A stretch of DNA of 64,000 bases from Lophium mytilinum (GCA_010093605.1 MU004194.1:472323-536322); one strand, 5' to 3'; shown: positions 1-42,004, counted from the first letter of the stretch. The notes: generated from the letters alone by a model not told the origin. Program-made: numbers and translations.

Positions 1-312
1 TTATTTACTATAGTAGTAAACTCTATCTTATTAGTAACTATAGTATTAATAGTTATAGTACTATTACTATAATAGTTAAAAAGCTAAACTAGTAGCTATA
101 TATAGTGCTATAGGTTAGTTTCTTATAGTTTCTCTAGAATATCTATATACTTAGGTTTAGTATTTAAAACCTATTTAGTCTTATAATATATAACTAGAAT
201 AGAGGCTTATTAGTCTACTATAGATACTTAGTAATAAGTAGCGTATAGATTACTACTATTAGCTTAGTAAGGGTTATATATATTATCTTCTATAATAAAT
301 TAGATAGTGCGC

Positions 313-483
313 TATTATAACCCGTAATACTAAGAACTTAATTACTAAGGTATTTAAGAAAGTAAGTAAGTAGATTAGATTAGTTACGCATAATCTATAT
401 ATAGGACCCAGGGGTATAAGAATCTAACGCCTTAGCGTGCTAGATTTCCCTACCTAGCTATAAGATTATAAGATAGAAAGTTA
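313..483 (+). repeat. 5' LTR, first segment (upstream of LINE insertion)
   Basis: Aligns by eye with 13193-13363, differing by transitions; begins TATTATAA (RIPed TGTTACAA-like terminus). Confidence 0.93.
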
Positions 484-559
484 AAAAAACATAATGCAAT
501 TAAATTCGCAGCACCTTAGAAATACGACCTAAGGAGGGCCCCTAGGGGCTACTTAAGGC

Positions 560-2365
560 CCTATAAACATTTGCACGCAGTATTAGAGCTCTATAAGCCG
601 TGCTAGCGGCGTTGTAGTAGAATTACGCATTGTAACCCCTATTATGCAGCATTATTAATAATAATAATAATAATAATAACACTACTAACAACACTAATAA
701 TAACTCTAAAACTAAACCTACTAACTAAAGACTAAGTAGAATGTCTACGCTAACGTCTAAGCGCTTGTTAAAGAAGCCTATAGTATATAGAACTCCCTAT
801 AGAATAAGCCTATATCCTTTAACCCTAAGATAAACAACGCCCTTAAGTACCTCTAGAACTTCGCCGGGCGCGTACTAGCTAGCCTCTTAGGCACTGCGGA
901 GGACCTATAATAAACGCTATAGAGGAAGATAATAAAGATAATAGAGAAAATATAGAAGGGCGTATAGGCGCTATCTATATAAGAAATAACCTATGCAGCA
1001 GTAATAGTAGTAGAAAGGAATAGTAAGACTATAGAAAATAGGGAGTATATAATATAGACTACCCATAAAATTACTATATATATTAAGGATAAGGAGAAAC
1101 GCGCCGTAATAAATAAGGACTTAAACGTAACTATTACCTATAAGCTCTAAGCGGTAGGAGAGCCTAATATAATAAAGATCTACAGCGTTAGAAAGCTCTA
1201 GAGTGGAGACGTAAAGGCCTATATGCCGGACGCAACTGCTAAGGAAGCCCTATTAAAGAAGAAGGAATAGATAAAGGTTCTAGGCAAAATAGTATAAATC
1301 TAACTACCTAAGGTTCTTCTAGAGGTGCACGGAGTACCTAAAGAGATAGATCTAGAGGACCTAATACTATAAAGTAGTATTATATAAGATAATAAGGTAC
1401 TATACCTAGGCCTAGCTATATATAAGATTATATAGAAGTACCTAAATTAGATTTAGGCTATTAAGAATAACCCTAAACGGCGCGCCTTATTAGCTATAGT
1501 TACTATAGGTATAGAGGCAATAGTAAATAAGATTATAGATAGCGGGCTAGTATAGAATAGATATATACTAAAGGCTGTAAAGTATAAGGTAGGCTTTATA
1601 GCTACCTAATGCTTCTAATACTAGGGCTACGGGTACGTTGCTAGATACTATAAGAAGGAGGCGGTATACGCGGCGTGCGCAGAAGCTTATAATATAAAAT
1701 AATGCACGGAGGAGAGTATTAGAAAGTATATTAACTGTAAGAGAAGCTATCTATTATATAGTGCGGCGTGCACTATAAGAAAGAATACTTAACTAAAAGC
1801 TAATATAAAGAGGTGGGCAGCACTAACCCACTATAGGGCTAATAATAGCCCTAATAATAACACTAATAATACGCCGGGTATAGTAATATTCTAATCTATA
1901 ATAGAATTATAAGCTCTTAACGCAGTAAGTAGAAAGAGGAAGGCTACTAAGAATAGTAACGCACTAGACGGCAGCACTCTAAGGAGAGTAGAACGCCCCC
2001 CTATATCTACTATATTCGCCGCGCATAAGAACCTAAAATAACTAAAGATAAATAGAGTACTATAGTCTACCTATGCTATATAGACTACCTAATTAATATA
2101 TACTTTCTATTTAACGCAGCAGCCTAACTATAATAACCTATAGCCTTACTATAATAGCCCGCAGCCTTTCTATAGAACCCTGCAGCCTACCTATAAAATG
2201 CTATACTACTCTTAAATAATAACCTATAGTAATAACGCTAGACTATTATAATTTAACGTAACTTAGGTGCCGTCTACCTAGAAAGAAGAGGTAGCGAGCT
2301 ATTAGCTCTATGCTAAGGCTAGCTAGGCTGTAATAAATAACCCCGAAGACTCTATAGATACCTAA
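560..2365 (+). pseudogene. LINE ORF1 (gag-like) relic
   Basis: De-RIPed reading at ~1605-1775 gives three knuckles: QCFQCQGYGHVARYC, CAACAEAHNTKQC and CINCKxSHPxxSAAC. Boundaries approximate. Confidence 0.8.
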
Positions 2366-5300
2366 TGTTAGGGCAACCTAATATACTTACTATTATATAG
2401 TATAACATTAATAAGAGCTAAGAGACCTAAAGGGAGTTCCTTAAGAAGGTAGAGGCGGCCTAGCCCTAGCTATTAGTACTAGCTATATAAGAACTATAGA
2501 AGAATATCTAGAAATATACCTTACTATATATAAAATTATACTACCTACTATATAGAGGAAGCCTAAAAGCTAGAATATATATATATATTAATAAATACCT
2601 AAACCTAGGCTAATAGACTATAGAGTACTACTTACTAGACCTTATTACCTTCTCCCTCTAGGCCGGAGGAGAGGATATTTAAATTTATAATATCTATAAC
2701 CTAAAGCTATATAGAATTATAGCTACGCTGCCCCCTATACTATATAAGGAGGTAGAGTATATACTTATAGGCGATATAAACCTATACTACCTGTTCTAGA
2801 AAGAAATACGGGTAATTAGTGTAGAAGAGTAAGCTAAGAAGCTTATTTGCATTATAATAGAAGTAGGCCTAACCCTAGCTATAGAGAAGGGCATAGAAAT
2901 ATAGGCAAGAGAAATGTAGTAGACTATAATTAACCTTATATTTATATCTAAATAGCTAATAGAATATATAACGTTCTATATAGTTTAAGAGGAGTAGAAC
3001 TATTACTTAAACTACCGCCCTATATATATAGAATTTAATATTATACTACTACTAGTAACTAAATAGCCCCTACGCCGGCTATAGAAGAATATTATATAGA
3101 AGGACGTATAGAAGCACCTTNNNNNNNNNNNNNNNNNNNNCTATAGTACTAATAGCATAGCCCTTATAGCACGCATTACTATTCTAGACCGAGGAGTATT
3201 TAGAGGAGGTGTATAAGACTAGGCGGGTGTATAGAATATAGCGCTTATTACACTCTATAGAGAACTAGATATTATACCGGGTTTAGTATAACTATAAGAA
3301 AAGAGCTATATAGAAAGAGAGTACTAAGATATAGTACTATATAGTAGAGAAGGTAATAAATAACTTTAAAGGGGTATAGAAACTAGCTAAATAGGGCCGC
3401 ACGGTTAGAAAGAAATTAAGGCCCCCTCCTTAATTTCCCCTTCTCTCCTAGCTAGGTAACTCTACCCTGCATGTAGATAATAAGATAAAAGTATATATAC
3501 TTATTAAACAGTTCTTTCTACTACTAGTAGAAGCTAACCTATCTAATCTAGAAGGGTTCTAATACCTAGAACTATATACTACCTCTATAGAAGTTACTAT
3601 AGAAGATGTACTTTTAGTACTAATAGAAATTGCGCTGGATAAGGCCCCTAAAATTATAGAAATTATAAATAGATTTCTAAAGAAGTATAAGATGCAACTA
3701 GTACTAGTGCTTACCTGCTTCTTTATAAAGTGCCTATATAGAGGACACTACCCCCGCCTGTTTAAAGAATTAATTATAGTAGTTCTATATAAACCTTAGA
3801 AAGCGTTCTATATAATAGTAAAAGCCTATAGGCCTATTATACTGCTAGAAATAATAGGTAAGCTATTTAAATGTATTATAGCTAAGAGGCTCTCTAAGAT
3901 AGTAGAGGAAAAGGGTATGCTACTGCCTAGCTAAATAGGGGCACGGCCGGAACGCTTTATATAGATAGTACTTAAACTCCTTATAGAATAAATCTATACT
4001 ATATAGAAAGGAAACCTACGGCTTATAGTATTACTTCTTAGCCTAGATATATTAGAAGTGTTTAATTAAGTCTTATATAAATAAATAATATATAACCTAC
4101 GGGTCTAGAGTATACTAGAGTAGATAATAAGGTTTACTAGGTTCTTTCTATAAGACCGCATAACTAAGCTCTCTATAGGAAGCTATATAGTAGAACTAAT
4201 TGCAGTTACTATAGGTATTCTATAGGGCTTCTTTCTATTGCCTATTCTCTTTCTCTTCTTTACTAGTATACTACTGCTAACCCTTTAGAATAGTAATATA
4301 ACGGCCTACAGGTTTATAGATAATATAAATATTCTTATATATAGTAGAACTATAGAGGCGAACTATAGGGCTATTAAGAGAGCCTATAATAGATGCATGG
4401 AATAGGTAAGAAAGTATAGCGTAGTATTTATACTAGATAAATATTACCTAATATACTTTATAAGAGCCTGTAAAGGAGTTAACCTAAGAGCTATAGTTAA
4501 TATATAAGGCTTTATAGAGGGCCCTATAATAGACCTAAGAGTACTAGAGGTATAGATAGACTTAAAGCTTAAATAGGGCCCGTATATTAGCATTATAAAG
4601 AATAAAGCTATAACCTAGATAGAGGCACTTACGCGGCTTATAGCATCTACCTAGGGCGCCAGCTTTAGAAAAGCACGCCTAATATACTTAGTAGTAGTCC
4701 GGCCTACTATTATATATAGATGCACTACCTAGTATACTATACTAGGCATGCTAGAGTAGCTTAGTAAAATAAAGATTAAGCAGCTTAAAATAACCTAGAA
4801 CTAATGCCTTTAGAGAATTTTAGGGGCCTATAAGACTATAAGTACTATAGTACTAGAATATAAAATATTATGCCTACTACTCTAGCTAAAACTAGAGGAA
4901 CTTATAGTAGCTTACGCGGACTATATATATAAAGGGCTAGCACGCCAGTATATTAAAATAGTATACAGTAATATATAATAGGAAATCTACACCCACTATA
5001 GGCTACTTATAAGGCTAAAGTACGGCCCTAGCCGCTGTAATATACTCTATAACCTTATAGTAAAGGCTATAAGGTTATATACTAGGTATAAAGATAAATT
5101 AGATAAAGCTTATAAGCGCTTAAGGCGATTTATAATTAAATATAAATATAAAGAAAGATAGAAGAAGGTATAAAAGTCCTTTTATAAAATAGAATAGCGC
5201 GGGCCACTAACGCCGGCCCTTAATACTAAATAGAGTAAATAATAGGAGACTATATATAAAGAGCTTATAAAGGTTAAAAGTACTATTCTTATAAATCTAT

Positions 5301-5600
5301 AAACGGAGTATATAGGGCTTAATAGATACCTGCACCGCATGCGGGTGCTAGGCTACCTAATACTAGCCTGCCTATGCGGGCACGGTCTCTAATTACTACG
5401 CTATATAGTAATAAACTGCAAGAGGTATATAGAGGGTAGAGGCGAACTATTTAAGAAAGTAAAGACTTAGACGTATAAGGAAATATATAAAAGTAAAAAG
5501 GGACCTAAGATAGTAGCTAGGTAGTTTCTATAGAAAATAGACCTGCTACTCTACCTCTTAATAGCGAGAGAGATAGAAAGGAAGTAGACCTAGCCCTCCT
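2365..5600 (+). pseudogene. LINE ORF2 relic (APE endonuclease, reverse transcriptase, C-terminal CCHC)
   Basis: De-RIPed motifs QYNINKS, LAIQEPW, GDMNLHHPFW, TIDL, SDHRPI (APE); AYRPIALLETIGKLFE, QMGARPERST, LSLDMSGAFD, GIPQGSxLSPILF, GFVDD at ~4310-4325 (RT); CPCGHG...HIVMNC at ~5368-5420. Contains a 20-N gap. Boundaries approximate. Confidence 0.88.
3121..3140. other. Assembly gap (20 N)
   Basis: Run of n inside LINE ORF2. Confidence 1.
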
Positions 5601-5608
5601 ACTTAATA

Positions 5609-5770
5609 CTATAGCCCTGCTATTACCTATAGCCTTACTATAACTAATAGCCTTGCTATAACTAATAGCCTTACTATTACTAATAGCCTTACTATTACCT
5701 ATAGCCTTACTATTACCTATAGCCTTACTATTACCTATAGCCTTGCTATTACCTATAGCTTTGCTATTAC
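5609..5770 (+). repeat. 18-bp tandem repeat x9 in the LINE 3' region
   Basis: Unit consensus CTATAGCCTTACTATTAC, nine contiguous copies, no spacers. Confidence 0.92.
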
Positions 5771-6657
5771 CCCCAACTACACTATAGCGGGCCTTAGCGC
5801 CCCCTCTTAACTAGTACTTAGTATAGATAGTTAGCTTTAGGTCTCTACTATATACTCTATAATGTATACTTTCTATATACTTTCTATCTCTTATAGCCCT
5901 TCTATTTCTAAATAGCCTACCTACTTTATAATAGTATATATACGCGGCTCCCTTCCTTCTACTATTAGTTAGTTATACTATAAGGGCTTATACTTACTAT
6001 AAGCAGCTATATACTTTCTAATTATAGACTATAAACTATATACTCTATACTCTTAGCCCTTCTATAGCTATTAGCTATACTATAGAGGCTTATATATGCT
6101 ACTATAGCTATAAACTCTATATAGCTGCTTGCAGCCCTTCTACTCTTATAGCCTGCCTATAAACTATATACTTTCTATATATCTCTACTATATACTACCT
6201 ATATACTGCGTAGCCTTTCTATCTCTAATAGCCTATACAGCTACTATTTATTTTACCTTATTACCTTAAATAAAGGCCCTGTAAGCGCACTACTTACACG
6301 CGGGCCCTTACACTAATTCTATACTAGCCTCGCATCCGGATTCTACTCGGCCTAAACCTAGGAGAATAATAATAAACCTTCCCGGATAGATATAGGAAGA
6401 CGCATTTTAATAGCTTATTCTATAGTAGTTTTTATAGACCTACTATATATCCCCTATAGTAAAATATAAAGAAGAAGGGCGCCTAACGCTAGATATAATA
6501 GAGGACGAGGTTTTTACCTAAATGCTGCCCGGTAGCAAACGGTTTCCCCTTATAAATTAGCCTAGATAGAATAGCTATATGGACCCTAACGGGAGCTATA
6601 CTAGCATAATAGAATTTAATAAAATAATAATAAATAAAATAATAAGATAGAAAGTTA

Positions 6658-6959
6658 TATAATAGATTAGAAGAATTATAATAATCTAGAAGGATCTAGA
6701 TTAAGGGGATTAAGATAATCTATATAATCTATAGATTTCTTAGAAGTTATCTTTTATATTTAAGTATACTTATTCTTATAGATAGAAACCTTATATTTAA
6801 CTTAATATTAGTAACTTATACCTACTAATAAGTAACCCCATCTTATACCTAAGATTAATTTACCTTCTATTTTAAATAATATTACACCTCTATAAAGACT
6901 TAAACTATACTCCGCCTTATATAAGTACTTAAAGAGTATAGAAAAAATAACCTATTATA
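6658..6959 (+). repeat. 5' LTR, second segment (downstream of LINE insertion)
   Basis: Aligns with 13364-13665; 171+302 bp equals the 473-bp 3' LTR. Confidence 0.93.
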
Positions 6960-7059
6960 CTTTAAATACTACTATATTAGAGGATTATATATAAATACCT
7001 AATTAAGATAGTACTACTATAAACCCCTTAAAGAAGTACTACCTAAGGCCCTATACTAA

Positions 7060-8545
7060 TAATAGCTAATATAGTAGAATAAATATAAACGCTACTTACT
7101 TAGGTCTAATAGTTAGAACTCTAGAATAAGACTAAAAATAAGAAGATTCTAGCTCTCTAGGGCTACCTCTAGGCTATTTAAGAGGAGGTTATAACTAGTA
7201 AGGTAACTAGTAGCTATAAAGAATATAAGATAAAGAAACCTAAGAAGTTCTTAGGTAATAGAGAAACTCTATAAGCCTTCTTAATATAGATAAAGCTATA
7301 CCTACTTAATAATAGTAATAACCTTATATTTAAGTTAGATAAGGTTTATATAGTAGTAACCTTTCTTAAAAAAGAAGCGTTTAACTAGTTTAATCTAGTA
7401 CTTATAGACTAGCTCTATACTACTAAACTAGTAGAAAGAAAAATAGAGACTAATAATATATTTAGTAACTACTAAAACTTTAAAATAGTGCTCTAAACTA
7501 CCTTTAGAGATATTAATAAAACCTAAACTATAGAATAATAAATTAAGAACCTAAAATAGCGTAACTTAGCTAGCTGCTATACCTTAAAGTTTATATAGAT
7601 ATCCTTAAAGCTAGTATAGAGAGATAAAGCTCTAGTAGTATAGTACTATAGAGGTCTTAAAGAAGATATTAAAAATAAAATTACTAGAAGTAATAGACTA
7701 GTAATAGTCTATAGACTTTAGAAGATAGTAATTTATATTAATAATTAATAATATAAAAGGCATATAGAGAAAACTAACTATAAGGGCCTACGCCCCTATA
7801 TACTAGTATATAAGAGAAAAATAGTTATATACTACTCTAGAAAACTAATAAAACTAGACTATACTAAATAATATAAGAAATATAAGTACTAACTACTATT
7901 AGATAAAGAAAAATAGGAATAATATAAGAAGGGCGCGTACCTATAATGCGGAGAGATAGGATACTTTATAAATAAGTGCCCTAAGGGTAATAATAACTAA
8001 ATAGTAGTAGTAATAATAAAGACGCCTAAAGTTAGCTATAAGGCTATATTATAGACTGCGTACTATAATAATAACTACTTTACCTACTAATCTAATAAGT
8101 AGAAATTAGGCTACTACCTATATAAACCTAAGGAAATATATACTATAGCTATAATAACTAATAAAGAGTATATTAATAAGAATAACTGCCTTAATAACTA
8201 CTATACTAATATAGAGTGCAATAAAATAAAAGTTAATTACCTAGAAATAGAAGGATTATATAAGATAATTAGCTTACTACTTAAATAAGTAACTAGAGTT
8301 AAGATAGAATAGAAGATAGACTCTAATAGTAGTATAAAACTAGAATCCCTAGAGATATAATAGGCTATTAATAAGGTTATATAATAGTACTTCTTACTAT
8401 AACTAGAATATAGAGAATAAGCTCTACTTAAAATAGTTATAAGCAACTACTATATACCTAGAACTTTTAACCTAGAGTAAAAACCCTCTAGTAAGAAAGA
8501 ATAAAAGGATTTAAAATAGACTAGTAATAGAGAAATTAGCCTAGC
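7060..8545 (+). pseudogene. Gypsy gag relic with CCHC zinc knuckle
   Basis: 7938-7979 de-RIPs to CLQCGEIGHFxNxC; truncated by the assembly gap; start approximate. Confidence 0.8.
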
Positions 8546-9470
8546 NNNNNNNNNNNNNNNNNNNNNNNNNNNNNNNNNNNNNNNNNNNNNNNNNNNNNNN
8601 NNNNNNNNNNNNNNNNNNNNNNNNNNNNNNNNNNNNNNNNNNNNNNNNNNNNNNNNNNNNNNNNNNNNNNNNNNNNNNNNNNNNNNNNNNNNNNNNNNNN
8701 NNNNNNNNNNNNNNNNNNNNNNNNNNNNNNNNNNNNNNNNNNNNNNNNNNNNNNNNNNNNNNNNNNNNNNNNNNNNNNNNNNNNNNNNNNNNNNNNNNNN
8801 NNNNNNNNNNNNNNNNNNNNNNNNNNNNNNNNNNNNNNNNNNNNNNNNNNNNNNNNNNNNNNNNNNNNNNNNNNNNNNNNNNNNNNNNNNNNNNNNNNNN
8901 NNNNNNNNNNNNNNNNNNNNNNNNNNNNNNNNNNNNNNNNNNNNNNNNNNNNNNNNNNNNNNNNNNNNNNNNNNNNNNNNNNNNNNNNNNNNNNNNNNNN
9001 NNNNNNNNNNNNNNNNNNNNNNNNNNNNNNNNNNNNNNNNNNNNNNNNNNNNNNNNNNNNNNNNNNNNNNNNNNNNNNNNNNNNNNNNNNNNNNNNNNNN
9101 NNNNNNNNNNNNNNNNNNNNNNNNNNNNNNNNNNNNNNNNNNNNNNNNNNNNNNNNNNNNNNNNNNNNNNNNNNNNNNNNNNNNNNNNNNNNNNNNNNNN
9201 NNNNNNNNNNNNNNNNNNNNNNNNNNNNNNNNNNNNNNNNNNNNNNNNNNNNNNNNNNNNNNNNNNNNNNNNNNNNNNNNNNNNNNNNNNNNNNNNNNNN
9301 NNNNNNNNNNNNNNNNNNNNNNNNNNNNNNNNNNNNNNNNNNNNNNNNNNNNNNNNNNNNNNNNNNNNNNNNNNNNNNNNNNNNNNNNNNNNNNNNNNNN
9401 NNNNNNNNNNNNNNNNNNNNNNNNNNNNNNNNNNNNNNNNNNNNNNNNNNNNNNNNNNNNNNNNNNNNNN
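8546..9470. other. Assembly gap (925 N), probably covering the retrotransposon protease
   Basis: Run of n between the gag and RT relics. Confidence 0.95.
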
Positions 9471-12400
9471 CGCTAGAATAAGCCTAAGTAAAAATTAGAG
9501 ATTAATATAATATTCTTAAGAGGCATATAGAGGGCCTAAAAAAAAGAATAAATAGTAGACTAATTCTAGTACTAACCTATAAATCTTAATAACTAGTAGC
9601 TAGCTAAGGTAGCTAGAGTACTAGATATACTAAGAGTATATAAAGAATTTAGAGAAATCTTCTAGAAAAAGGTTTAGAATATATTACTAAAGTACTAATC
9701 TTAGAATTACTAGATACCCCTAGAACTAGGTAAATAACCTAAGTTTAGACTAATCTATTTACTATTCTAGAATAAACTAGTAATACTTAAGAAATACCTA
9801 GATAAGAACCTAAAGTAAGGATTTATTTAACTATTAGAATTACCCGCAGGTTATCTAATAATATTTATTCTAAAGAAAGATAGTAAAATACGCCTCTATA
9901 TAGACTATAGATAGCTTAATAGTATTACTATTAAGAACTATTACCTTTTACCCTTAATCTTAGAACTAAAGGACTATTTATATAAGGTAAAATACTTTAT
10001 AAAGCTAGACCTCTAAAAGGGCTACTACCTTATAAGAATAAAGAAAGAAAAAGAATAGAAAATAGCCTTTAGAACCTAATATAGATACTTTAAGTATATA
10101 GTTATACTATTTAGTCTTATAAACGCGCTAGCTATATTTTAGGTAGTAGTAAATATAGCTCTATAGAAATACCTAGACTAGTTTATAGTAGTATATCTTA
10201 ATAATATTCTAATCTACTTAGAGAATAAAGAAGAATATAAAGAGCATATTAAGAAAGTACTAGAGAAACTTAAAAAATATAGTCTTATAGTTAAGCTAGA
10301 GAAATATAAGTTCTATATATAAAGAGTTAGATTTCTAGAATATATTATTAGTCTAGGTAGAATTAAGATAGAGGAAGCTAAAGTTATATTTATTATAGAA
10401 TAGCTAGAACCTAAGAACTTAAAGAAGTTATAGTTCTTTCTAGGTTTAGTAAACTACTATTAATAATTTATTAAGGGATACTTAAAGATTATAGAACTAC
10501 TTACTAGACTTATATAAAAGAATATAGAGTATTAATAGACCTTAAATGCCTAGATTATATTTAATAACTTAAAAGTATAGTTTACTTTAAGACTAGTATT
10601 AGTAATCTTTAATCTATAAAAACTAATAACTATTAAAAGTAATATATTAGATAAAGTATTAAAAGCTATACTTAACTAGCTAGATAAATAAGAAAAGATA
10701 CACCCTATAGCGTTCTATTCTAGAAAGCTAAGCCTAGCTAAGCTAAACTATAATATCTATAATAAGAAACTACTAGCTATAGTAGAGGTGTTTAAATAAT
10801 AGAGAGTTTACCTTAAAGAAGCCTTATATATAGTATAGATATATATAGATTATAAAAATCTAACCTACTTTATAATAACTAAGAAGTTAAACTAATAATA
10901 GGTTAGATAGTTAGAGAAACTAAAATCTTTTAACTTTAAGATTATATATTAAAAAGGATCTAAGAATACCTATATAAACGCACTAAGTAGAAGGCTAGAC
11001 TATATAGTAAAAGACTATAGTTAAGTACTAATAATACTATAGAAAATTAGTCCCGGAACTCTTAAATTTAACTACGTATAGCTAGCGGTAGCATACTAAG
11101 CTAAGAATGCAGAGTAGAAAAGAAGAATTAAGGAAATATAAGCTAATAACCTAGTAAGTTAATAATTATAAGAAACCTAAGATACTTAAAAATAGTTAAG
11201 GCTACTACTATTCTAAGAATAAGTACTTATATCTATAATTCTATAAGATAAGCTTATAAGAGACTTCTATAGCGTACTAGTGTATAGATACTAAGAAATT
11301 AATAAAATAGTTAAATAACTATCTAGAACCTTCTACTTTCTAGGCATGCGCTAAGTAGTAGAGAGAATTATTATAGAATATAAGTGCATAAAAAATAAGT
11401 TAGTATAATATATACTATATAGACTACTAAGGAGTCTACTAATACCTAAGAAAGTATAAAAATCTATAGTATAGAACTTTATAGTTAAGCTACTATAGTC
11501 TATAGAATCTATAATAGGTATAAAGTATAACGCTATATTAGTAATTATAGACTAATTAACTAAATATATATACTTTATACCTTATTAGAAATTATTAATA
11601 GTAGAAGATCTAGCCTATATATTTCTATAAGTAGTTATTAGTAACTATAGGCTACCTATAGAAGTTATTTTAGACTAAAATAAGCTCTTTATATTAAAAT
11701 TCTAGTAGACTCTTATTATATAACTAGAAATAAAGTATAAGCTCTCTACAGTATTCTACCCGCAAATAGATAGATAGATAGAAAGGCTTAATTAGACTTT
11801 AGAATAATATCTATAATACTATATTAACTATAAATAAGATAATTAGGTATTACTATTACTAATAGCCTAGTTTACTTATAATAGCGCATCTATAGAGATA
11901 ATAAAGGTATTACCCTTTTATATAAACTATAGTTTTAAGCTAGAGGTATATTAAGAACTATAAATTAGTAATATAAAGGCCTAGAGAGTATTACTTTCTA
12001 TTAAAAATATTAAAGAACTGTAAAAATAGCTATTAATAGATATCTAATTTCTAGCATAAAGGTTAGTATAGTATTATAACTAATATAGGCGTATTACTTC
12101 TACTTTTAAAAGGGGGGATAGAGTATACCTACTCTAAAAAAATATTAAGATAAAATAACTAAGTAGAAAACTTAACTATATTAAAATTAGACTATTTAAA
12201 ATCTAAGACATTATTAGCCTAGTAAATTATAAGCTTAGGCTACTACCTAAAATAAAGATATACCTAGTATTTTACGTCTTATTATTAGAACTAGCACCCC
12301 AGAACACTAAGCTAGAGAATAATATTAAGGTTAATAATAATAATAAATATAAGGTTAATAAGATTCTAGACTTAAGAATATAAGATTAGTAAATAGAGTA

Positions 12401-12550
12401 CCTAATTAAGTAGAAAGGATATAATACCTTAGAAAATATATAGAAACTAGAAAGCTACCTTAAAAAGTACTACTAGATAGTAATATAGTTCTATTACTAG
12501 AATCTAGAATAACTTAGAATAACAGTAATATTATATTAGCTAACTAAGTA
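9471..12550 (+). pseudogene. Gypsy pol relic: RT, RNase H, integrase, chromodomain
   Basis: De-RIPed motifs FVPKKDGKMRLCVDYRQLN, KLDL, WKTAFRTRYGHFEYxVMPFGLTNAP, VVYLDDILIYS (~10190-10220), HPVAFHSRKL, NYDIHDKELLAIV, WDFIVKLP, VDRLTK, STAFHPQTDGQTERLNQ, and chromodomain YEVDKILD...YLIKWKGYDTSENTWEP (~12348-12450). Confidence 0.92.
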
Positions 12551-12559
12551 GAATCTATT

Positions 12560-13075
12560 AAACTAGGTAACTTAATAGAGATAGATATACTAATAGAAGG
12601 TAGGGCTTCCCTTTTAATATACTCTTATTCTCTCTACTTAGCCTCTTTATAATTCTTTTCTTTTAACTTCTTAAGAGTATAGAAGCTATATTAAAGTATA
12701 TTTACTTTATAATACTTAAGTAGATTCTTCTACTTCTCTAGGCGCTCTATCTTTATAATTACTACTCTTATAGCTTTATAAGTAGTAGACTTCTTAGTAT
12801 AAAGCTTTACGCAAGTCTAATTAATACAGGCAACTAAGAGAAGTAAGTTAGAAGGTAATTAGAAAGAAAAGCTATCTATAATCTACTATAGTAACTCTAC
12901 TAGTATTATATTTTATATACCTATAATAAATATACTCTCTATAGTAATCTAAGGCTAAGAAAAGTACTTTATAGTCTAAGAACTACTTCTAGTAGAAGGA
13001 ATAAAAAACTATAGAGATACTAGAGAGAGTAATACGGGTACTAAGTATAGAGTATTATTTAACCTTATTAAATAT
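12560..13075 (-). pseudogene. Antisense accessory ORF relic of the chromovirus: Zn(II)2Cys6-like cluster plus coiled coil, one 46-nt intron
   Basis: Minus-strand 13003-12908 has TAT/TAC codons (RIPed TGT/TGC) spaced x2-x6-x9-x2-x7. Putative intron 12879-12834 has a CTAAC branch site and TAG acceptor. The downstream exon reads KIERLEK*KNLL... (heptad-like). Ends approximate. Confidence 0.7.
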
Positions 13076-13192
13076 AGTAGAAGAAATAAAAGAGTATAAT
13101 AATATTTAAGTAGTTAGAAGATTACTAGCTATTTATCTAAGATTCTACTATAGAGTAACTTTTAGGCTAAAAGCCTTAGAGGGAGAAGTAAG

Positions 13193-13665
13193 TATTATAA
13201 TCTATAATACTAAGGACTTAATTACTAAGATATTTAAGAAAGTAAGTAAGTAAATTAGATTAGTTATATATAATCTATATACGGGACCTAGAAGTATAAG
13301 AATTTAATACCTTAGCGTGCTAGATTCCTCTACCTAGCTATAAGGTTATAAGATAGAAGGTTATATAATAGATTAGAAGGATTATAATAATCTAAAAGAA
13401 TCTAGATTAAGAGAATTAAGATAATCTATATAATTTATAGATTTCTTAAAAGTTATCTTTTATATTTAAGTATACTTATTCTTATAAATAGAAACCTTAT
13501 ATTTAACTTAATATTAGTAACTTATACCTACTAATAAGTAACCCTATCTTATATCTAAGATTAATTTACCTTTTATTCTAAATAATATTGCACCTCTATA
13601 AAGACTTAAACTATACTCTACCTTATATAAGTACTTAAAGAGTATAGAAGAAATAACCCGTTATA
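13193..13665 (+). repeat. 3' LTR (473 bp)
   Basis: Follows the PPT, matches the split 5' LTR, and carries a single copy of the LINE target site (13348-13363). Confidence 0.95.
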
Positions 13666-13813
13666 TATACTTATCTAGAATATTTACGCTAGGCGTAATA
13701 AAGCTGCCTTTATTATTAGAGTCTTAGTCTAGATTAAGTTTATTAGTAATAGTCTAGTTCTAGTTTATAAATCTAGTAGTATTAACTTAATTATCTACTA
13801 AGTATTTAGGGCG

Positions 13814-13866
13814 CTAGGTATCTATATACTAGGTATCTATATACTAGGTATCTATATACTAGGTAT
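13814..13866 (+). repeat. 15-bp tandem repeat x3.5
   Basis: Unit CTAGGTATCTATATA repeated contiguously. Confidence 0.9.
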
Positions 13867-14859
13867 TATCTATAGTCTATAAAAAGGCTTAAATATTTAA
13901 AATTAGTTCTCTAGTTCTATATTAGAAGCTAGAAATAATAGCTAGTATAAAAGAGCTTTTAGCTACGCCTTAAAAGTATATAAGTTATATAGCGTAGTAA
14001 GCTTTCTTATTACTAGTAGTTAATAGAGTTATAGAAGTATAGGTAATAGATAGTTCTTTTAAAGTATTTAGGGCGGCGCTATTTATAGCGCCTAGAGTCT
14101 TTAGATTATCTTAAAGCCTAGCTATTAAATTAACTAGCTTATTTAGAAGAGGCGGTACTAGATTATAGTCTACTAGGTTAAATTTAGGTACCGCGCGTAG
14201 CTATATAGCTAGGCCGGCGGGTATTTAAATTATTTTAGTAAAAACGCCTAGATCTTAATAGAGTTCTAGAAAAATTTAATAAGATTCTAAGTATAAAAGA
14301 GTAAGCTTAGATTATATAGAGAGCTAATATAATATAAGTAATAAGGTATATTAACTATTATAAAAATCTAAGCTAAGAAGAAAAGAGAGAGCTAGAAGCT
14401 CTTAAGAGGTTATAGTTTAACGCTAGCGTATAGGCCGCGGCCTAGCGCCTTAGGCTAGCGTCTTACTTAGGTTATATAAGAGGCTGCATATAACTTTAGT
14501 ATATAATTATTATAATTCTAGGTTTATACTATAATAATATCTATATATATTTTAATAGAAATATTAGCTTAAAATAGTTTAGTATAGCTCTATTAATACT
14601 AGAAAACTATCTAAGATATAGAAGGTAAAAAATAAAGCTTTTTCTTTACTTTTAAGTTTAGATATATTTATTCTATATATAAACTATATAGCTATAGAGT
14701 TAAAAGTTAATTAGATATTATTATAGTAGTTAGATAGGTAGTAATTAATTATATAGTATTAAGCTATTTACTTCTTTCTTTCTATAACTTATAAAAATAG
14801 TCTAAAATTATAATAATATTATATCTAGATATTTAATTAAGCTTAACTAGACTATAATA

Positions 14860-16280
14860 ACTATTATCTACTACTATATCTACTCTAACTACTACCTAAA
14901 TTAATAGATTATTACTATTTCCTCTACTAACTATACTATCTTCTCTATCTTCTCTACTTTTTTTACCTTCTCTACTACCTCTATTTACTACTTCTACTAC
15001 CTTAATATAGCTATCGCGGCTAGAATAGTATCTATCTAATTCTTTAACTTCTTTTTACTCTTCTCTAGTAACTACTAGAAGCTCTATTAGCTCTTTTATA
15101 TTACCTTTTTAATCTAATTAAAATAAGTTAATATTAGCTAGATATTATCTTAGCGTAACTTCTTAAGCTCTAGTAAGGCTACCTGCACCTCTATTATTAT
15201 ACTTATTATCTTTATTAGCTAATTCTCTATAGTTCTATCTAAATTCCCTTATAATATCTTCTTTCTTTCTTTTTATAGTTTTAAAGTTTATATAGGTATT
15301 ATAGAAAGGTGTATAGAAGTATACGCAGAGCTATATCTATTACTATTTTTTTATTATTATTTAATTTCTTATCTATATACTTACTACTACTCTTACTACT
15401 ACTCTTAGTATTATTATATATTAATTTAGCTCTTAGTATAGCCTATAGGTTCTTTTAAGATATAATTTCTTCCGCAAGAATATATTCTATCTTATCTCTT
15501 TACTCCTGCTTAACGCGCTAGCGCGTATTAACTATAAGAATCTATTAATCTATTATAGAGGTATACTTATTAGTATTTTAATTAACTATAGTTCTAGTTT
15601 TTAACTCCTCTAGCTAAGTATAATATTTCTTTATTATCTTAGGTATAAATTTTAGTATATTTTTATAGAATATATCTATCTTCTTTAGTAACTTCTTCTA
15701 TACTATTTTCTATATATTTTTTTTTCTAGCTTTACTCTAGATATTATATAAGTTATATAGAATCTTAAAGAGCTTTATAGCCTATAGCTAAGTAAATAGA
15801 GTATTTCTTTTAGCCTTTTTCTTCTTTTTCTTTTTCTTCTTCGCGGCCTTCTTAGTAGTATTAGCCGCTGCCTTTTTATTAGCTTTTTTCTTATTCTTAG
15901 TAGCCTTAGCCTTTAATTTAGCCTCTTTTTTTTACTTTTTAATAGCCGCATTATATATATTAAGGTTCTCTAGATACTACTAATTCTTAGTATAAAAGCG
16001 CCTCTTTATTTTCTTATCTATATACTTCTTCTATTTTAGAAATTATCTTTTTTTAGTAGGTTTTATAAGAGAGGGCGCCTTAATTATAGCTATAGTAGAA
16101 TTAGTAGGCGTAGAGGATTTAGTAAGCTCTAGTATAGAAGGTAGAGAAACTCTAGCTAATAGTATAGTAGTAAGCTCTATAGTAGGCTATATAGTAGGCT
16201 ACTATATAGCCTTACTATACTTAATAGCCTACCTATTTAGCTTTTTAGCCTTTCTATTTTATATTATTTAATATATAGGC
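14860..16280 (-). pseudogene. RIP-degraded coding relic, Lys/Glu/Ala-rich coiled-coil protein of unknown family
   Basis: Minus-strand stretch near 15810-15925 still reads EAKLKAKATKNKKKANKKAAANTTKKAAKKKKKKEEKG; many RIP stops; no TE motif recognised; boundaries approximate. Confidence 0.45.
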
Positions 16281-17675
16281 AGGTATTATATAGGCTAAGT
16301 AATTATCTAATATATAGATAGGTATATAGGCTAAGTAAAATAGTAAGGCTAAGAAGAAAAATAGTAAGTATATATAGATTTATTAGCTAATAGCTCTATA
16401 GAAAAATCTATTATATTTAGATTAGCTAGTATTTAATACTATTATATAGAGCTCTTAATTTAGTATAGAATAGCCTAATCTATTAATTACTAAGATATTA
16501 AAGAACGGCTAATAAAATTAATACCTAGAGTTAATAGATAAAAGGGCGTATTTCTATATATAATAGCTAGAGCTATTAGCTTACTCTCTTCTAGCTATAG
16601 CCTATTATTTAGTAAGCCTCTTAGTATAGTATTATTTAAGAAAGTTCTCTATATACTATAAAATTTATATATAATATAAATAATAACGTGCCTAGAATTA
16701 ATATATAAGAAATTTAATAAGCCTATAGATATATAGGTAAGGCTAGCTATTTTACTATTTAAAATATTTAAATAGTAGTAGCTTATTTATATATAGATAT
16801 ATAGTATAGAGTATAGTAAGAATTATAGAAATTTATAATAAGTATAGCCTAATAAAGCTATATTATATTAAAGTTATAGGCTAATATTTCTCTAGCTATA
16901 TATAGTTAGAATAGTAAAAATTCTATAAAGAAATATTAATTACTTTATAAGTAATTAATATTTCTTTATAAAATTACTCTCTTGCTATATATAGTTAGGT
17001 ACGCCTAAAATAGTTAATCCAATTGCCAAGATTAAGCGATTTTTAGACGGAAGGCCTGCTGCATAAAGGCCCTATTTTGGCAGATGAGCAGGGAGACACT
17101 GGTTGCCGCTGGTGTAGTCCTAGTCCGCACGAAGTAAGCCAGGTCGTTTCAACCGTCAGCCACCGAAACCTAGAACATTTCATGGTAAATTCATCATCAG
17201 GGTAACAGGGAAAGAGCTGGAGATGACAGAACGATACCGTGACAGTCAGGTAGCCCAGTACCATCAAGCAAGTGAGTTGTTTGAAATGGCTCGGAGGAGT
17301 GAAAGAAGGATTAGCGCAGGAAATTCTACCGTTGGAAAACCCCCGCTAGACCCGTCGATCTAGTCAAGGCTCTCCGCGGGGAGCGCTTTAGCCAGAGCTT
17401 TCTCTTGCCTTAAAAAGCAGGCACAAAATTTACCTTAGGAAACCATATTTGTATTCAATTTTTGTCTACCGTACGGTAAGGATTCTTGTACCCTGGTATC
17501 CATTTCTTAGGGTTGACTCCAGTCGTCCACGGCTGTTGTCACAATGGGACAGGTAACTAGCTGAACCCAATTCCTCATTCATTCGTCCGCTCGTACGTAC
17601 ACAGGGAAGAGAAATATACACAAGTCCCATCGGAGACGCGAAAGGCCCACCAACCACGCAATCAATACCTTTGCC

Positions 17676-33983: not shown

Positions 33984-36900
33984 ATGTGTGAGTCCCCCCT
34001 TCCCTCTATTCCCCCGCGAATCCCTTGGGCCGGAGCGTTTCCGGGTCTGCAGGGACAGCCTGTGGAAACGGGCGCGTTGCTGTGCCCTCTCAGCCTTCAG
34101 CCTTCCCAGCGCCTCGAAGACCCTATCCGCTGCCGACGTGTTAGCCCTGAGGAATACTGCTAACAGGAGGGCCCCCATGTAGCTGCTCCCCCACTGTCGC
34201 AAGCACGACAACATGCCGGGAACCTGTCGCACCATCCAGACCCTCCCGCAGTCCCCTCGATCCCCCCCTCTCGCGAACCCTCTGTAACACGCGGACGTGC
34301 CCTCACGGCCTCCGGGCGTGCTATTTCTCCTCGATCCCAGACGCCCGTAGTCATCGTCCCCAGAAGCAACCCCTCCCCGGAGGGCGGACTTGAACGCAAA
34401 CCTTCCCTGTCCTACGGCCACCACCGCCAGACCTCCATCGTACATGGCATACAGCATTCGCGGAACACCAGCTTTGTAAACTCGCCGGCTACCAGCCCGC
34501 TGAGCCCTCAGGTCATCGCTGCGGCCGGGGCCGTCCCTGATGGCCTCGCCATGTCGCAGGAAGACTTCAGAGAAAATCCCCAGGCCAACGGGGCAGCACT
34601 CGCCGCCCCCAACTTCAGCACAAATGGCGGTGGTCTCCCCGGGGCACCTAATGAGGCGTCCTCGTTCACGGTGGGCGCGCGGAGACCAGAGCGTATGCAG
34701 AGCGGCAAGGCAAAGCGCGAACACCACCACCACCGCTCGCAGTCCCGGCATCATCACCATCCCCAGGAGCTGAAGACGGTGGGAGAGTATGCGTTGCACC
34801 ACTTGTTTAACTCGGTCAGTCGCCCTCGGTTTGGTACGCCAACATTCGCTAAATTGAGTATTTGTAGTTTGTCGGCCAGGCGGACCAAAAGATTAATCAA
34901 TGTATCACCGACCCAAGCCAACCTGAACCTCGAGTCGAACTGATCTGTGGCCCTGGCGTTGACCCTAATTTCGACCAGCTTATATCTGCTCTAGGCCACA
35001 TTGCTCGCCAAAAGCCAAAGCCTTTGATAGATACGCTCATGTTCTGGCGGAAGGCTAAAAGTGAAGCTGCAAATGCTGCTAGACTCGAGTTGAACAATGT
35101 AAGCCAGGCTTCCTCTTTGCAGACAACCCCGCTGACCTTTTGCAGTCGCGAGGCGCCACCCCACCCATGAACGGACTTCTCCCTCGTAGAAATACTGAGC
35201 CTATGCACGCTGCCAGTGATAGCCAGGCATCGACAATTTCAGCAACAACCTCTCCCAATATTATACTCCTTCGTCAGCAAGCCGTGTTTCAAGCCGAGCG
35301 CCGATCAACCGTCTCTATCTACATCCTCTGTCGCGTTCTTATCGAGATCATTGGCCAAAGCGACCTGGCCTGTGTCACACTGGAGATGGCGAATCGCCTC
35401 GAGGACATCATCTATACCCAGCTGAAAGGCGCCGAGCCTGAGTCATTAGAGGAATCTCCTTTGCGACATGCCAATTGGCTCATATTTGGACAGCTTCTAG
35501 GAGTAATGAGCGAAATCAACTTCGATAGTGTGTCTGAACGGTTTGTTGCAGATCTAGAGAAGATGCAAAAGCATTTAGGAGTCAAAGGTCTTGCGAGTAA
35601 AGAAATCGAAGGTAAAGCTGTGCTGGTTGTAAAAGGCATGAGGTACTTGCGCTTGAAGAGCTATCCTGAAGATGCTTGGGATCATTCGTGCGATTTCATG
35701 CAATCGCTTGCCAGATTATTTGCCAACGTACACGGACGGCCGGTGAAATACGCCTATTGCCAACTGCTGAAGGAACTGCTGCTCCGAATAGCAGAGAAAG
35801 CAACAATCGAGCTCAACGTGCCAAAATGGAGGATCGTGGTAGACACCATCAAACCCAGGCTTTCGCTGCTCCTCAGCAAACCCAAGCACTGGCATGAAGC
35901 ATATCCTCTCATGGTAGCCTTGCTCTGTGTTTCCCCGACGGAGACGTTCGCAAGCCAATGGCTCGCTCTTGCCCTCTCTTCTCAACCACGATTGAAAGAA
36001 CGCACAACACGGGTGACTGCTCTGAGGGGAATATGCCGCTTGGTGTGGACCTACCTTTACCGGAACAACACAGACTCTCCAAACGCTATCACGAGAAAGC
36101 TAGAGGAGGTCATTCGTTTGGTGTTCCAGCCTGGAAAGCGATCCTACATCTCTACGGAAACCGCAATAGTGGAGCCGCTCATACAACTGATCAGAATTAT
36201 TGGCTTCAAACAACAGGATCTTTGCTTTAGGACGATCATCTTCCCACTTCTGAACTCCGAGTTGTTCTCCACAGGCAAAGAACTCAAAGTAGGCGACCTC
36301 GAGCCTGAAAGAATGGTCATTGGTATTCGGTCATTCCTCGCCATTATGGCAGATCTGGAGAAAGGTTCACAGCCACCTTTCCCAATAACGTTTGACTGCG
36401 ATCCTTACGTCGAACCGATTGAGATACCCTCACTTCCCGTCAGCCCACGTCCCGCCCCTCTCCATTTACCGCTCAAATCATCCCTTGTGCGAGAGGAAAG
36501 ACTTTCAAGACCCGTAATAATTACAGGATTCGGGGAGATTGCGAAAGAGTACTACATCAAGTTTTGTAAGATCTTAGGTGAGATAACCTTGATCTGCGAC
36601 AACGCATTCGGCGGACAAGCCGTCTTGGATGAGAAATTTGCTGTACAAACACCGAAGACTCCAATGGCCGATGCATTCAGCTTCACCCGAAGAGAGGACC
36701 ACCAAAATCCGACCGATCTTAGACAAGGCTTCTACGACTTATTACACGTCGCAGTTCAAGCTCTACCCCGCTGCCTTTCTCCTCACATACCCTTCAATTC
36801 CCTCATTAACCTACTGTGCACGGGTACCGCACACGTCCAGAGCAATATTGCAGCCTCCTCCGCCCAGTCCCTAAAATCTATAGCACGCCAGTTGCATGCC

Positions 36901-39900: not shown

Positions 39901-42004
39901 CGACGAAAGCTTGGGTATAAGGGTCCCCAAGGGTATGATTCATGTCGCAGACCAGGTCCTCGATATCTTTTCCCTCGCATATCCCGGGATTCGTGAGGAG
40001 TGGGGTCGGGTCACCTTGAGCTGGGCAACTTCTTGCCCTGTGCGCCATTTGGCATGCCGGTCTTTCCAGCTATTCCGCTGCATCTTAAGCACTCTTGACC
40101 AGCACATGCTTTCGGACATGCTTGCAAGGCTCTCAAACACAATATCCGACGATGAAGGTGACATTCAGACCTTTTCGATGGAGATTTTGACCACTCTGCG
40201 AACCATCATTGAGAAGCTAGAACCATCGGATCTTTTGCAATATCCTCAACTGTTTTGGACGACATGCGCTTGCCTTAACACGATTCACGAGCGAGAGTTT
40301 ATGGAGAGCCTTGCTATGTTAGACAAACTTTTGGACAAGCTCGACTTGAGCAACGCAGCCACTGTCGCCACTCTCGAAGACAATTATCCTCAGAAATGGG
40401 ACATGCCATTTGAGGGCATTGCTGGCTTGATATACAAGGGAATCAGGTCCAGTGTATGCTTGGATCGATCGCTGGGTATTCTTGAGCGACTAGTCACTCT
40501 TCCGTCCAACAGTCTTGTTGGAAGCGACAACCGTCTGCTTTATACGATACTTGCGAACTTTCCAAGATTCCTCCGATCTTTTGAGCAAGACACACCAGAC
40601 CCAAACATATTCAAGACGGCGGAGGTTTTAGCTAACATGTCTGAAGAATATGGGTGTACTGGTCTATCTCGAGCGCTCAGTGGTTTCGCAAATCAACGGT
40701 ATCGCACCGACAAAGATTTTCTTGGGCACGCTGCATCCGCTTTGCGATCATCAGTCTTTCCAAATTGGGAGTACAAAAGCCTAATATTCCTACTCAGCCT
40801 GCTTACCAACAAATTACCCTGGATGAAGATTCAGACGATGCGTCTTTTGTGCGTAATCATACCCGAGATTGATATGCGAAAGCCAGAAATCGCCGCAAAG
40901 GGGCCAGACCTTATATCACCCTTGCTGCGACTGCTTCAAACGGAATTCTGTCCACAGGCCCTCCAAGTACTTGACTATGTCATGAACATGACGGGCACAC
41001 CGACGCCTTTGGACCGACACCACCTACGCATGAGTATGGCGGGGTCACACTCGAGCCGAGCGTTTCGAAAGGAGTACGATAAGACGCAAAGTCTGTATGG
41101 CATACCTGAAGAGACAGGCTGGTCGATCCCTATGCCCGCTCATTACTCGGCTTCTACACGCAATAATGTGCATGCGGTGTTCTACACTTGCATGACCCCA
41201 GAAAGCAACGACCTGTCAGAAGTTACAACGCCAAAGATTGAGTTCCGCCAAGAAGAATTCCCTTTCAGTCCGTTCCCCGACTATCGCACCGCAACAATGA
41301 CATCCACGTCCGAGGACGTTCGTGGGGATGGCCATATTGGTGAACTGATTATGAAACTTGACAGCCTGGACGATTTTTTCGAGGACGACGATGCTGAGAC
41401 ACTTTCTGAGCTCCCTTCCAACCTCGGGCTTGGGCGCTTCAACTCGAGCCAGGCCGATGTGCGAGAGAATGTCTACGATCAACAGACTCTTCCTATCCTA
41501 CACAAGTCTCTCACTCGGAACGCTAGCGTGACTTCATTCCAGTCTGGCTTTGCTGATGCCAAGGTGCCGGCGCCACCAAGGGACCCAGGTGTCATGACCC
41601 CGACGCTATTCACGGCGCCATCTGGACCTCTTGCGCCTGCACCGTCTGGGCCCCTGCCACGGCCAGGTCTTCACTCTCGATCTGTCACGTCGCCTTCGGT
41701 CAATCAGCGGACTCCACCAGCATATTCGATGAGTACCGATGACAACGAGGAACCCTTTTCGGACGATGACGGACGTCTGAATACGGTTGAAAAGTCGTTC
41801 TCTCTTGAAGGCATGATTCGTCCTCTTACTCAAGATACCAGATCACGGATCAGGTCTGGGATGCGACGATTGACAGGTGGAGGGGGGGACGCGAAGGAGA
41901 AGGAGAGAACAAGAGAGGCCATACGAGCAGCGTTGCAGAAGAGCCCGCAGGTGCCAAAAGTTCCTGACATCTATCTACAGAACCCGAAGTCAGCGGAACC
42001 GTAA
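33984..42004 (+). CDS. TAO3: Cell morphogenesis scaffold protein Tao3/Pag1 (MOR2-PAG1/Furry family), ~2541 aa; exons 33984-33987, 34183-34814, 34868-35098, 35146-38481, 38533-39543, 39593-42004
   Basis: KTVGEYALHHLFNSFVGQAD, LIDTLMFWRKAK, AERRSTVSIYILCRVL, WATSCPVRHLACRSFQLFR, LARLSNTISD; all introns GT-AG and in frame. Confidence 0.93.

Follow-up and report, generated by a model that had tools for sequence, protein, structure and literature searches.

The question raised by one locus of the ascomycete Lophium mytilinum is what once occupied the spacer between the pol gene and the 3′ long terminal repeat (LTR) of a chromodomain Ty3/gypsy retrotransposon, a copy of which lies, degraded by repeat-induced point mutation (RIP), in the first 17 kb of a 64,000-nucleotide stretch of genomic DNA (GCA_010093605.1 MU004194.1:472323-536322; this whole stretch is the window, in whose numbering positions are given). 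An initial annotation placed there, at 12560-13075, an antisense gene with an intron, the product of which would join a cysteine cluster of the fungal Zn(II)2Cys6 kind to a coiled coil. The best explanation overall, and a likely one, is a spliced antisense accessory gene, killed by RIP, in the spacer of this element; that the spacer held a real protein-coding gene when the element was active can be held with higher confidence still. The location first proposed stands while its extent does not, as homology reaches 12466 with a stop at 12462-12460, and the likely start is at 13012-13010. The parts of the gene, as modelled, are as follows.

12880-13012, minus strand: exon 1, with its probable start (ATA) and the six-cysteine module that now reads tyrosine (codon table against the homologue P0008 and a RIP-aware scan).
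12908-13003, minus strand: within exon 1, the six-tyrosine motif Yx2Yx6Yx9Yx2Yx7Y, proposed to be formerly cysteine (translation and the Cys spacing of P0008).
12834-12879, minus strand: proposed 46-nucleotide spliceosomal intron (donor ATAGAT, CTAAC at 12851, acceptor TAG).
12460-12833, minus strand: exon 2, encoding a long helix and a Ser/acidic tail that ends ...SSSTF, with the stop TAA at 12462-12460 (phmmer, BLASTP and tblastn).

The evidence that the spacer was coding comes in the first place from exon 2. The minus-strand frame with codons starting at 12831 reads ...IIKIERLEK*KNLLKYYKVNIL*YSF..., and since frame 1 from 12833 has many stops, the coiled-coil frame requires a codon split into 1+2 nucleotides, as had been implied in the initial annotation. 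With the minus frame of 12298-13197 as query, X being placed at stops, phmmer returned just two matches from a database of 1.84 billion representative proteins, P0002 (E 3e-9) and P0003 (E 4.6e-6), both to query residues 138-244 (12786-12466); pairwise BLASTP gave E values of 2e-11 and 8e-11 respectively, and tblastn 6.7e-14. With the homology at 12466-12786 on the minus strand and pol on the plus strand, the proposal of a coding gene lying antisense between pol and the 3′ LTR is borne out. P0003, which is not RIPed, contains KVERLEKQEDLLERREADLLRSGFQTLEELEEEERQ, nearly letter for letter the text KIERLEKQEDLLKRREADMLRRGLRTLEELEEEDRK that had been arrived at by reversing RIP by hand. An alignment with three homologues has 54 identical and 72 different columns, and 60 of the latter are reversible by C-to-T or G-to-A change alone. 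The codons of Gln, Arg and Trp are those that RIP converts to stops, and all of the internal stops of exon 2 (7/7) are aligned to Q, R or W of the homologues. A profile of the homologues added three close relatives and a distant one, for a total of seven proteins, P0002-P0008. Those from P0002 to P0007 derive from short contigs of 946-3718 nucleotides, have neither names nor Pfam domains, and several start without a Met. The open reading frames (ORFs) of the closer homologues extend upstream of the helix into unrelated sequence with no Cys module, which is as expected if a prokaryote-style gene caller had read into the intron. Pfam, applied to six frames of 12300-13200 with X at stops, gave no match on the minus strand, Zn_clus included, a result that is uninformative for RIPed DNA.

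It is the distant relative, P0008, that ties the six-cysteine module to the helix. The profile that retrieved it (A2, E 1.1e-4, in 5.8e9 sequences) was made from helix and tail only, with the Cys region excluded, and the alignment covers helix and tail; yet just upstream of the helix the same ORF of P0008 reads CSYCEDRNLDCRTANENSSRCSSCIGANQSNC, which is Cx2Cx6Cx9Cx2Cx7C and so has the exact Tyr spacing of 13003-12908, one of the 24 spacings that a loose definition of such a module, given below, allows. P0008 is about 30% identical to the other homologues and has an open frame of 220 residues with the helix, a DPL..W..W..PGSG tail and in-frame insertions and deletions. Translation of 13003-12908 on the minus strand gives YSFY*K*FLDYKVLFLALDYYREYIYYRYIKY, with Tyr at positions 1, 4, 11, 21, 24 and 32, where the initial annotation had counted them, and with extra Tyr at 20, 26, 27 and 29; its translation was right overall and wrong at residues 13-14 (VL, not YF), outside the motif. 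Its suggestion that the six Tyr were formerly six Cys gains support from the same spacing of the six Cys in P0008. In a RIP-aware ungapped scan, where the 33-residue module of P0008 was compared with every position and frame of 1-17000 and each codon was allowed its best RIP-reversed residue, the 13003-12908 site ranks 1 of 31,504 with a score of 103 against 72 for the next best, and when the six Cys columns are removed it ranks 38 of 31,516 (z 3.2). Ser2, Leu9, Asp10 and Ile25 are identical to P0008, several other residues are one RIP step off, and the ATA at 13012-13010 is aligned with the Met of P0008. That six of six TGY codons should have become TAY is expected because RIP in the element is near saturation, with Trp converted to stop at 7 of 9 positions and His to Tyr at 12 of 16. 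A query of the ESM Atlas with the Cys module alone gave scores of 0.80 or less.

By itself the Tyr spacing is not significant. Over the six frames of 1-17000, which comprise about 34,000 codon positions, the loose pattern [YC]x2[YC]x6[YC]x5-12[YC]x2[YC]x6-8[YC] has 7 starts; the exact spacing is seen once, at 13003-12908, and about 0.13 loose matches are expected by chance in three frames of the 630-nucleotide spacer. Tyr has a share of 9-11% in every frame of the RIPed DNA. With 7 loose matches in 17 kb and about 0.13 expected in the spacer, the pattern is insignificant alone (the initial annotation had itself cautioned that the spacing might partly be chance), and it gains significance from the independent evidence of the homologues. 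Composition-based measures are of limited reach here, as 3-periodicity (p 0.10 for the spacer) and codon scores trained on pol largely track strand composition. The plus strand of 12834-13192 has a coding-like score of 0.12 in the pol frame, although it is past the chromodomain and opposite exon 1, and this is probably an effect of strand composition.

The Cys module and the helix sit in different frames of the minus strand, with an offset of 1 mod 3. Insertions and deletions are rare in this copy, as gag-pol keeps one frame, and the frame change between module and helix therefore points to an intron, the existence of which somewhere between the two is, on the sequence, likely. The 46 nucleotides at 12879-12834 do read ATAGAT...CTAAC...TAG, as originally described, with the CTAAC 17 nucleotides upstream of the TAG acceptor; the donor reads AT, and undoing a single G-to-A change, in a TpA context, would be required for GT. 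The frame can be restored by twelve combinations of donor and acceptor. Among the donors that could be joined to the acceptor at 12834, that at 12879 alone leaves 20 residues from the last Cys to the Leu that lines up with RLELE, the number seen in P0008. Introns with an intact GT, among them 12900-12834, 12886-12817 and 12895-12817, either lose residues that have counterparts in homologues or bring a gap into the alignment with P0008, and use of acceptors 12817 or 12805 would remove residues aligned with homologues. The 46-nucleotide intron fits the frame change and is the sole candidate that gives gapless register with P0008, which makes it the best one, and the exact borders 12879-12834 can be assigned with moderate confidence. 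The resulting gene model, 13012-12460 on the minus strand, has 168 codons plus a stop, and 9 internal RIP stops; exon 2 would encode a helix some 90 residues long, in which E, K, R and L abound, followed by the Ser/acidic tail, which has two Trp and a conserved end.

The element in which the gene lies has the following features.

313-483, plus strand: first part of the 5′ LTR (87.7% identity to 13193-13363; begins TATTATAA like the 3′ LTR).
6643-6959, plus strand: second part of the 5′ LTR (6634-6959 has 93.3% identity to 13340-13665).
6960-12530, plus strand: internal region, gag-pol in a single frame, that of 6960 (pol end approximate).
About 7938-7979, plus strand: gag CCHC knuckle (in the gag-pol frame).
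9867-10343, plus strand: RVT_1, the reverse transcriptase (Pfam E 1.1e-15, X at stops).
10623-10931, plus strand: RNase H, RT_RNaseH (Pfam E 2.5e-16, X at stops).
12114-12290, plus strand: integrase SH3 domain, SH3_Tf2-1 (Pfam E 1.2e-5; 25.8 bits, below the curated cut-off of 30).
12348-12437, plus strand: N-terminal two thirds of the chromodomain (Pfam Chromo E 0.02, profile positions 1-31 of 53, below cut-off).
13178-13192, plus strand: polypurine tract AGAGGGAGAAGTAAG, abutting the 3′ LTR (direct reading).
13193-13665, plus strand: 3′ LTR, 473 nucleotides (repeat pairs in self-comparison).

The order of the pol domains is reverse transcriptase, RNase H, integrase and C-terminal chromodomain; RVT_1, RT_RNaseH and SH3_Tf2-1 share one frame, and the gag-pol frame is unbroken over about 4.6 kb of readable sequence on both sides of a 925-nucleotide run of N. 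The sub-threshold Chromo score is weak as expected of a RIPed copy. Other genomic copies have loose ends at 13189/13193 and at 13665, matching the LTR borders, and those at 13665 run on as the sequence found after the 5′ LTR. Positions 1-17000 of the window are AT-rich, with a GC content of 0.24-0.35 outside N, and the remainder is about 50% GC; TpA/ApT is 1.77-2.02 in the element against 0.72 in the GC-rich flank, and (CpA+TpG)/(ApC+GpT) is 0.08 against 1.25. The LTR pair, the polypurine tract, the Pfam domains of pol and the RIP indices together bear out the original description as a RIPed chromovirus: the element is a RIP-killed chromodomain Ty3/gypsy. A word-indexed protein search with the RIPed integrase-chromodomain-spacer frame found one pol fragment, P0001, and nothing more. 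Of the N runs, at 8546-9470 (925 nucleotides) and 3121-3140 (20 nucleotides), the longer covers the expected protease part of gag-pol. In the gag knuckle, now Y-x2-C-x4-Y-x4-C, Tyr has replaced the His and one of the Cys, and two Cys remain; this provides a small internal control for the effect of RIP on Cys and His codons.

The end of pol near 12530 leaves about 650 nucleotides up to the 3′ LTR, and the rest of the chromodomain would extend to about 12504. As homology of the antisense product runs to 12466 and its stop is at 12462-12460, its last 15 or more codons lie antisense to the end of pol. PGSGDGTV, the most invariant stretch of the close homologues, sits opposite the tail of the chromodomain, and its invariance may reflect a double constraint with both strands coding.

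The gene is present in other copies of the element family in the same genome. Contigs from two DNA runs of one sample (X1 and X2), compared at 80% likeness, span the spacer (12482-13084) at about 85-90% identity with 16-27 differences each; up to 4 contigs show the alternative letter at one place, and in X1 the variable places number 139, of which 130 are transitions. Of the 143 differences 40 were listed, and among these six exon 2 codons differ in the direction of RIP reversal: in four the residue of the homologues returns (D, G, E and A), a fifth change is silent, and the sixth yields Cys at a position that Arg or Ser occupies in the homologues. Exon 1 has one difference in that same list, at 12938, which is synonymous in the proposed frame.

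As to the nature of the protein, the Gal4-like layout has a Cys cluster, a short linker and a dimerisation helix, with basic residues that contact DNA between Cys2 and Cys3 and a Pro before Cys4. P0008 resembles the Gal4-type Zn(II)2Cys6 proteins (PF00172) in having six Cys within CX2CX6CX5-12CX2CX6-8C, a short linker and a long helix. The family departs from them in having no PF00172 match, no middle homology region and a tiny size (168-220 residues), and in P0008 the residues between Cys2 and Cys3 are E-D-R-N-L-D, one basic of six, with no Pro before Cys4. The Gal4-type membership initially suggested is thus not sustained, a scan of P0008 with the Zn_clus profile being negative at E<=10 and the inter-Cys residues being acidic; since the profile test failed and the basic residues are lacking, the Cys module is, by its sequence, described as Zn2Cys6-like and is not filed in PF00172. 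A phmmer search of the sequences in the PDB gave insignificant matches only, to no Zn2Cys6 protein. AlphaFold2, from the single P0008 sequence, predicts one helix at 76-167 with a predicted local distance difference test score (pLDDT) of 90-98. Its a and d positions are 33-46% L, I, V or M against 8-16% elsewhere, and 41-54% of its residues are charged, so that a coiled coil and an ER/K-type single helix are equally possible. In the ESM Atlas, to be taken as a lead only, P0008 adjoins ascomycete clusters with 62-122 members of 192-214 residues at scores of 0.92-0.94, one of them automatically named 'Zn(2)-C6 fungal-type domain-containing protein' and none with a common Pfam family; the Atlas recognition value for P0008, 2754, is within the range of real proteins.

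Several results weigh against a spliced antisense gene and need to be kept in mind. The gene is known here from DNA and the comparison of sequences, and scans of metagenome contigs and viral contigs found no locus of a homologue. The Cys module is backed by a single distant homologue, P0008, in the AlphaFold2 model of which it has a low-confidence pLDDT of 44-54; Pfam finds no match in four homologues, nor Zn_clus in P0008 at the threshold given above. The donor hexamer is unusual even after RIP reversal, and the 40 sister-copy differences listed, out of 143, include neither a middle position of the six Tyr codons nor the base 12879 of the donor. The codon-usage score trained on pol calls the minus frames of 12834-13192 non-coding (-0.26 to -0.29), and 19% of Markov shuffles reach the score of the exon 2 frame. 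Some of this would suit a reading in which both the Tyr spacing and the frame rich in K, E and L merely reflect the AT-richness of RIPed DNA, as would the high share of Tyr in every frame, the 7 loose matches in 17 kb and the indifferent periodicity. Chance does not, however, provide significant matches to un-RIPed proteins, place seven stops out of seven on Q, R or W, or give first rank among 31,504 sites when the comparison is with a homologue found without its Cys region; it is largely refuted by the homologue matches and the RIP-aware scan, and is barely credible. A narrower doubt is whether the helix exon alone is real, with the six-Tyr motif arising by coincidence and the gene truly starting, or having its first exon, elsewhere. 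The dependence on one homologue for the module, its absence in frame from the closer homologues, the lack of a Tyr-codon change among the sister-copy differences listed and the non-coding score of 12834-13192 all speak for this. Yet the spacing is identical to that of P0008 (1 of 24), the strand is that of the helix, removal of 46 nucleotides makes the distance to the helix equal to that in P0008, the columns other than Cys still rank 38 of 31,516, and the Met of P0008 aligns with ATA, so that such a coincidence is distinctly improbable.

A different objection grants the conservation and disputes the protein: the openness and similarity of the frame would mirror conserved retrotransposon DNA (the 3′ end of pol and the spacer), the database proteins would be spurious calls made on fungal contigs by gene finders of the prokaryotic style, and at most an antisense RNA would matter. 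P0002-P0007 could well be such calls, given their short contigs, their want of names, Pfam domains and in several cases a Met, and their apparent read-through of an intron; the best-conserved stretch, PGSGDGTV, is opposite the chromodomain, and the protein is deduced from DNA. P0008, however, at about 30% identity, keeps its 220-residue frame, helix and tail with in-frame insertions and deletions, the substitutions are conservative ones, a single sequence sufficed for the prediction of a helix some 90 residues long with pLDDT above 90, the Atlas recognition is 2754, and conservation extends to the helix and the Cys module, which do not overlap pol. This shadow of another strand is very unlikely to be the whole of the matter. 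The gene might also be a fragment recently transduced from the host and peculiar to the present element family, and not an old accessory gene of chromoviruses, a possibility that draws on the homologues being known without genomic context and on the ESM Atlas neighbours being ordinary ascomycete hypothetical proteins, one cluster with the automatic Zn(2)-C6 fungal-type name. Simple capture would hardly interlock the end of a gene with the coding sequence of a chromodomain, though, and several diverged copies in the genome carry the gene; antisense genes are found at the same place in Boty-like elements of Botrytis and Sclerotinia, as reported in PMC7264820, and recent capture is quite unlikely. 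The four alternatives together account for about one chance in five.

In the remainder of the window there is a further element, the presence of which explains why the 5′ LTR is in two parts.

484-6642, plus strand: LINE-like (long interspersed nuclear element-like) insertion inside the 5′ LTR, RIP-degraded, about 6.15 kb (RVT_1 E 1.8e-5, 25 bits, against a Pfam cut-off of 29.6).

It has a 15-nucleotide target-site duplication (469-483, the same as 6643-6657) and an A-rich 3′ tail, and near its 3′ end, at 5591-5788, there are eight tandem 18-nucleotide units that are CTATAGCCTTACTATTAC-like. Within the 3′ LTR one contig each in X1 and X2 omits 121 nucleotides at 13314-13436, which is a deleted LTR variant elsewhere in the genome. 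The further RIPed DNA at 13666-17000 gave no Pfam match in six frames, and there are palindromic stretches at 16892-16998 and 16178-16219. The GC-rich part encodes a MOR2/PAG1 cell-morphogenesis protein at 35167-42004, spread over several ORFs and hence with introns, an eIF-2B family protein at 47576-48616 and a VPS15-like WD40 protein at 59849-63079.

Known antisense genes of LTR elements provide context. The fungal one, brtn, was reportedly first described by Zhao et al. (2011, Virology 417:248), and the plant elements with the ORF termed aORF-3R are generally assigned to lineages other than the chromoviruses. In the review PMC7264820, antisense ORFs between pol and the 3′ LTR are described from several plant elements and from Boty of Botrytis and Sclerotinia, with function unknown; the plant examples of aORF-3R are maize Grande, rice RIRE2, Silene Retand and Phaseolus PvRetro13, where it occurs in most copies of a family. 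As far as that description goes, they are like the present gene in position, orientation, presence in most family copies and unknown function; they are from another kingdom, the present gene overlaps pol and has a six-Cys module, and the likeness is one of description only. The gene brtn of Boty-like elements, which is cited or used in PMC7264820, PMC8365987, PMC4227169 and PMC5987419, is closer. As cited in PMC7264820 and PMC8365987, it is a fungal antisense example in print, to be set beside the plant ones named in the initial annotation, which knew of no characterised fungal Zn-cluster case. According to the papers that cite it, brtn is, like the present gene, located as an extra gene in the interval from pol to the 3′ LTR, antisense to gag-pol, in an ascomycete element with a chromodomain pol; the two are likened by position and orientation only, and the present copy is dead from RIP in a genome with AT-rich RIP blocks. 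Among the papers that cite brtn (PMC8365987, PMC4227169 and PMC5987419) there is a report of a Monilinia transcript that matches a truncated Pol and BRTN, which would fit an overlap like that of pol and the antisense gene here. The two supplementary files of PMC8365987 do not mention brtn, and PMC3248453 and PMC10799480 have nothing on antisense ORFs. No protein named BRTN is among the homologue matches, and full-text searches of the literature found no antisense gene with a Cys module and no fungal case other than brtn.

For a spliced antisense accessory gene in the active element, the following can be envisaged. Exon 1 (13012-12880) would have encoded the start and Cx2Cx6Cx9Cx2Cx7C, every TGY of which is now TAY, and, after the short intron, exon 2 (12833-12460) would have supplied the helix and the Ser/acidic tail, until RIP killed the accessory gene along with the rest of the copy. 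Introns antisense to the genomic RNA survive transposition, as is known from antisense-intron retrotransposition reporters. The spliceosome cannot remove such an intron from the transposition template, and it is therefore passed to new copies. The protein would bind zinc via its Cys module and self-associate or extend via its long helix, and a tentative role would be a nuclear one on nucleic acid or chromatin to the benefit of the element, for example in tuning LTR transcription or silencing; the antisense transcript would pair with the 3′ end of the genomic RNA and might itself work as an antisense RNA. DNA binding, dimerisation and a promoter near the 3′ LTR, which the initial annotation had proposed together with a regulatory role, are likewise conjectural. 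Among retroviral antisense proteins, HBZ of human T-cell leukaemia virus type 1 is a small helical minus-strand protein of the basic leucine zipper (bZIP) type encoded near the 3′ LTR, with a spliced form, and modulates LTR transcription. In being small, helical, spliced and encoded by the minus strand near the 3′ LTR it is like the present gene, and one may speculate that no other known system comes nearer to the way in which the gene could function; it differs in belonging to an exogenous vertebrate retrovirus and in having a bZIP instead of a Cys module, with no homology. Bolder, and rather doubtful at present, is the conjecture that a lineage of ascomycete chromoviruses encodes a helical regulator of its own, binding zinc and made from a spliced antisense transcript, the counterpart of HBZ and interlocked with the chromodomain, that controls LTR transcription, heterochromatin targeting or evasion of defence. 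If that were true, many small ascomycete proteins now called 'Zn(2)-C6 fungal-type domain-containing protein' would be retrotransposon genes and not host transcription factors.

Antisense accessory genes of LTR elements are on record from a few families in plants and from fungi in a single report, none with a known function. The present case supplies a protein family, characterised by a module of six Cys, a helix some 90 residues long and a tail that is conserved, and a probable antisense intron that would be the signature of a gene travelling with its element through RNA, as well as a stretch apparently coding on both strands, for a chromodomain and for the end of the accessory protein. Experiments in fungi whose copies are still active can start from these features. 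Even DNA under heavy RIP is seen to be readable: where C-to-T and G-to-A change is saturating, one can foresee stops in place of Q, R and W and Tyr in place of Cys and His, and masking the stops with X still lets a search reach intact relatives. From an annotation perspective, small Cys-rich 'transcription factor-like' proteins of ascomycetes may be retrotransposon genes.

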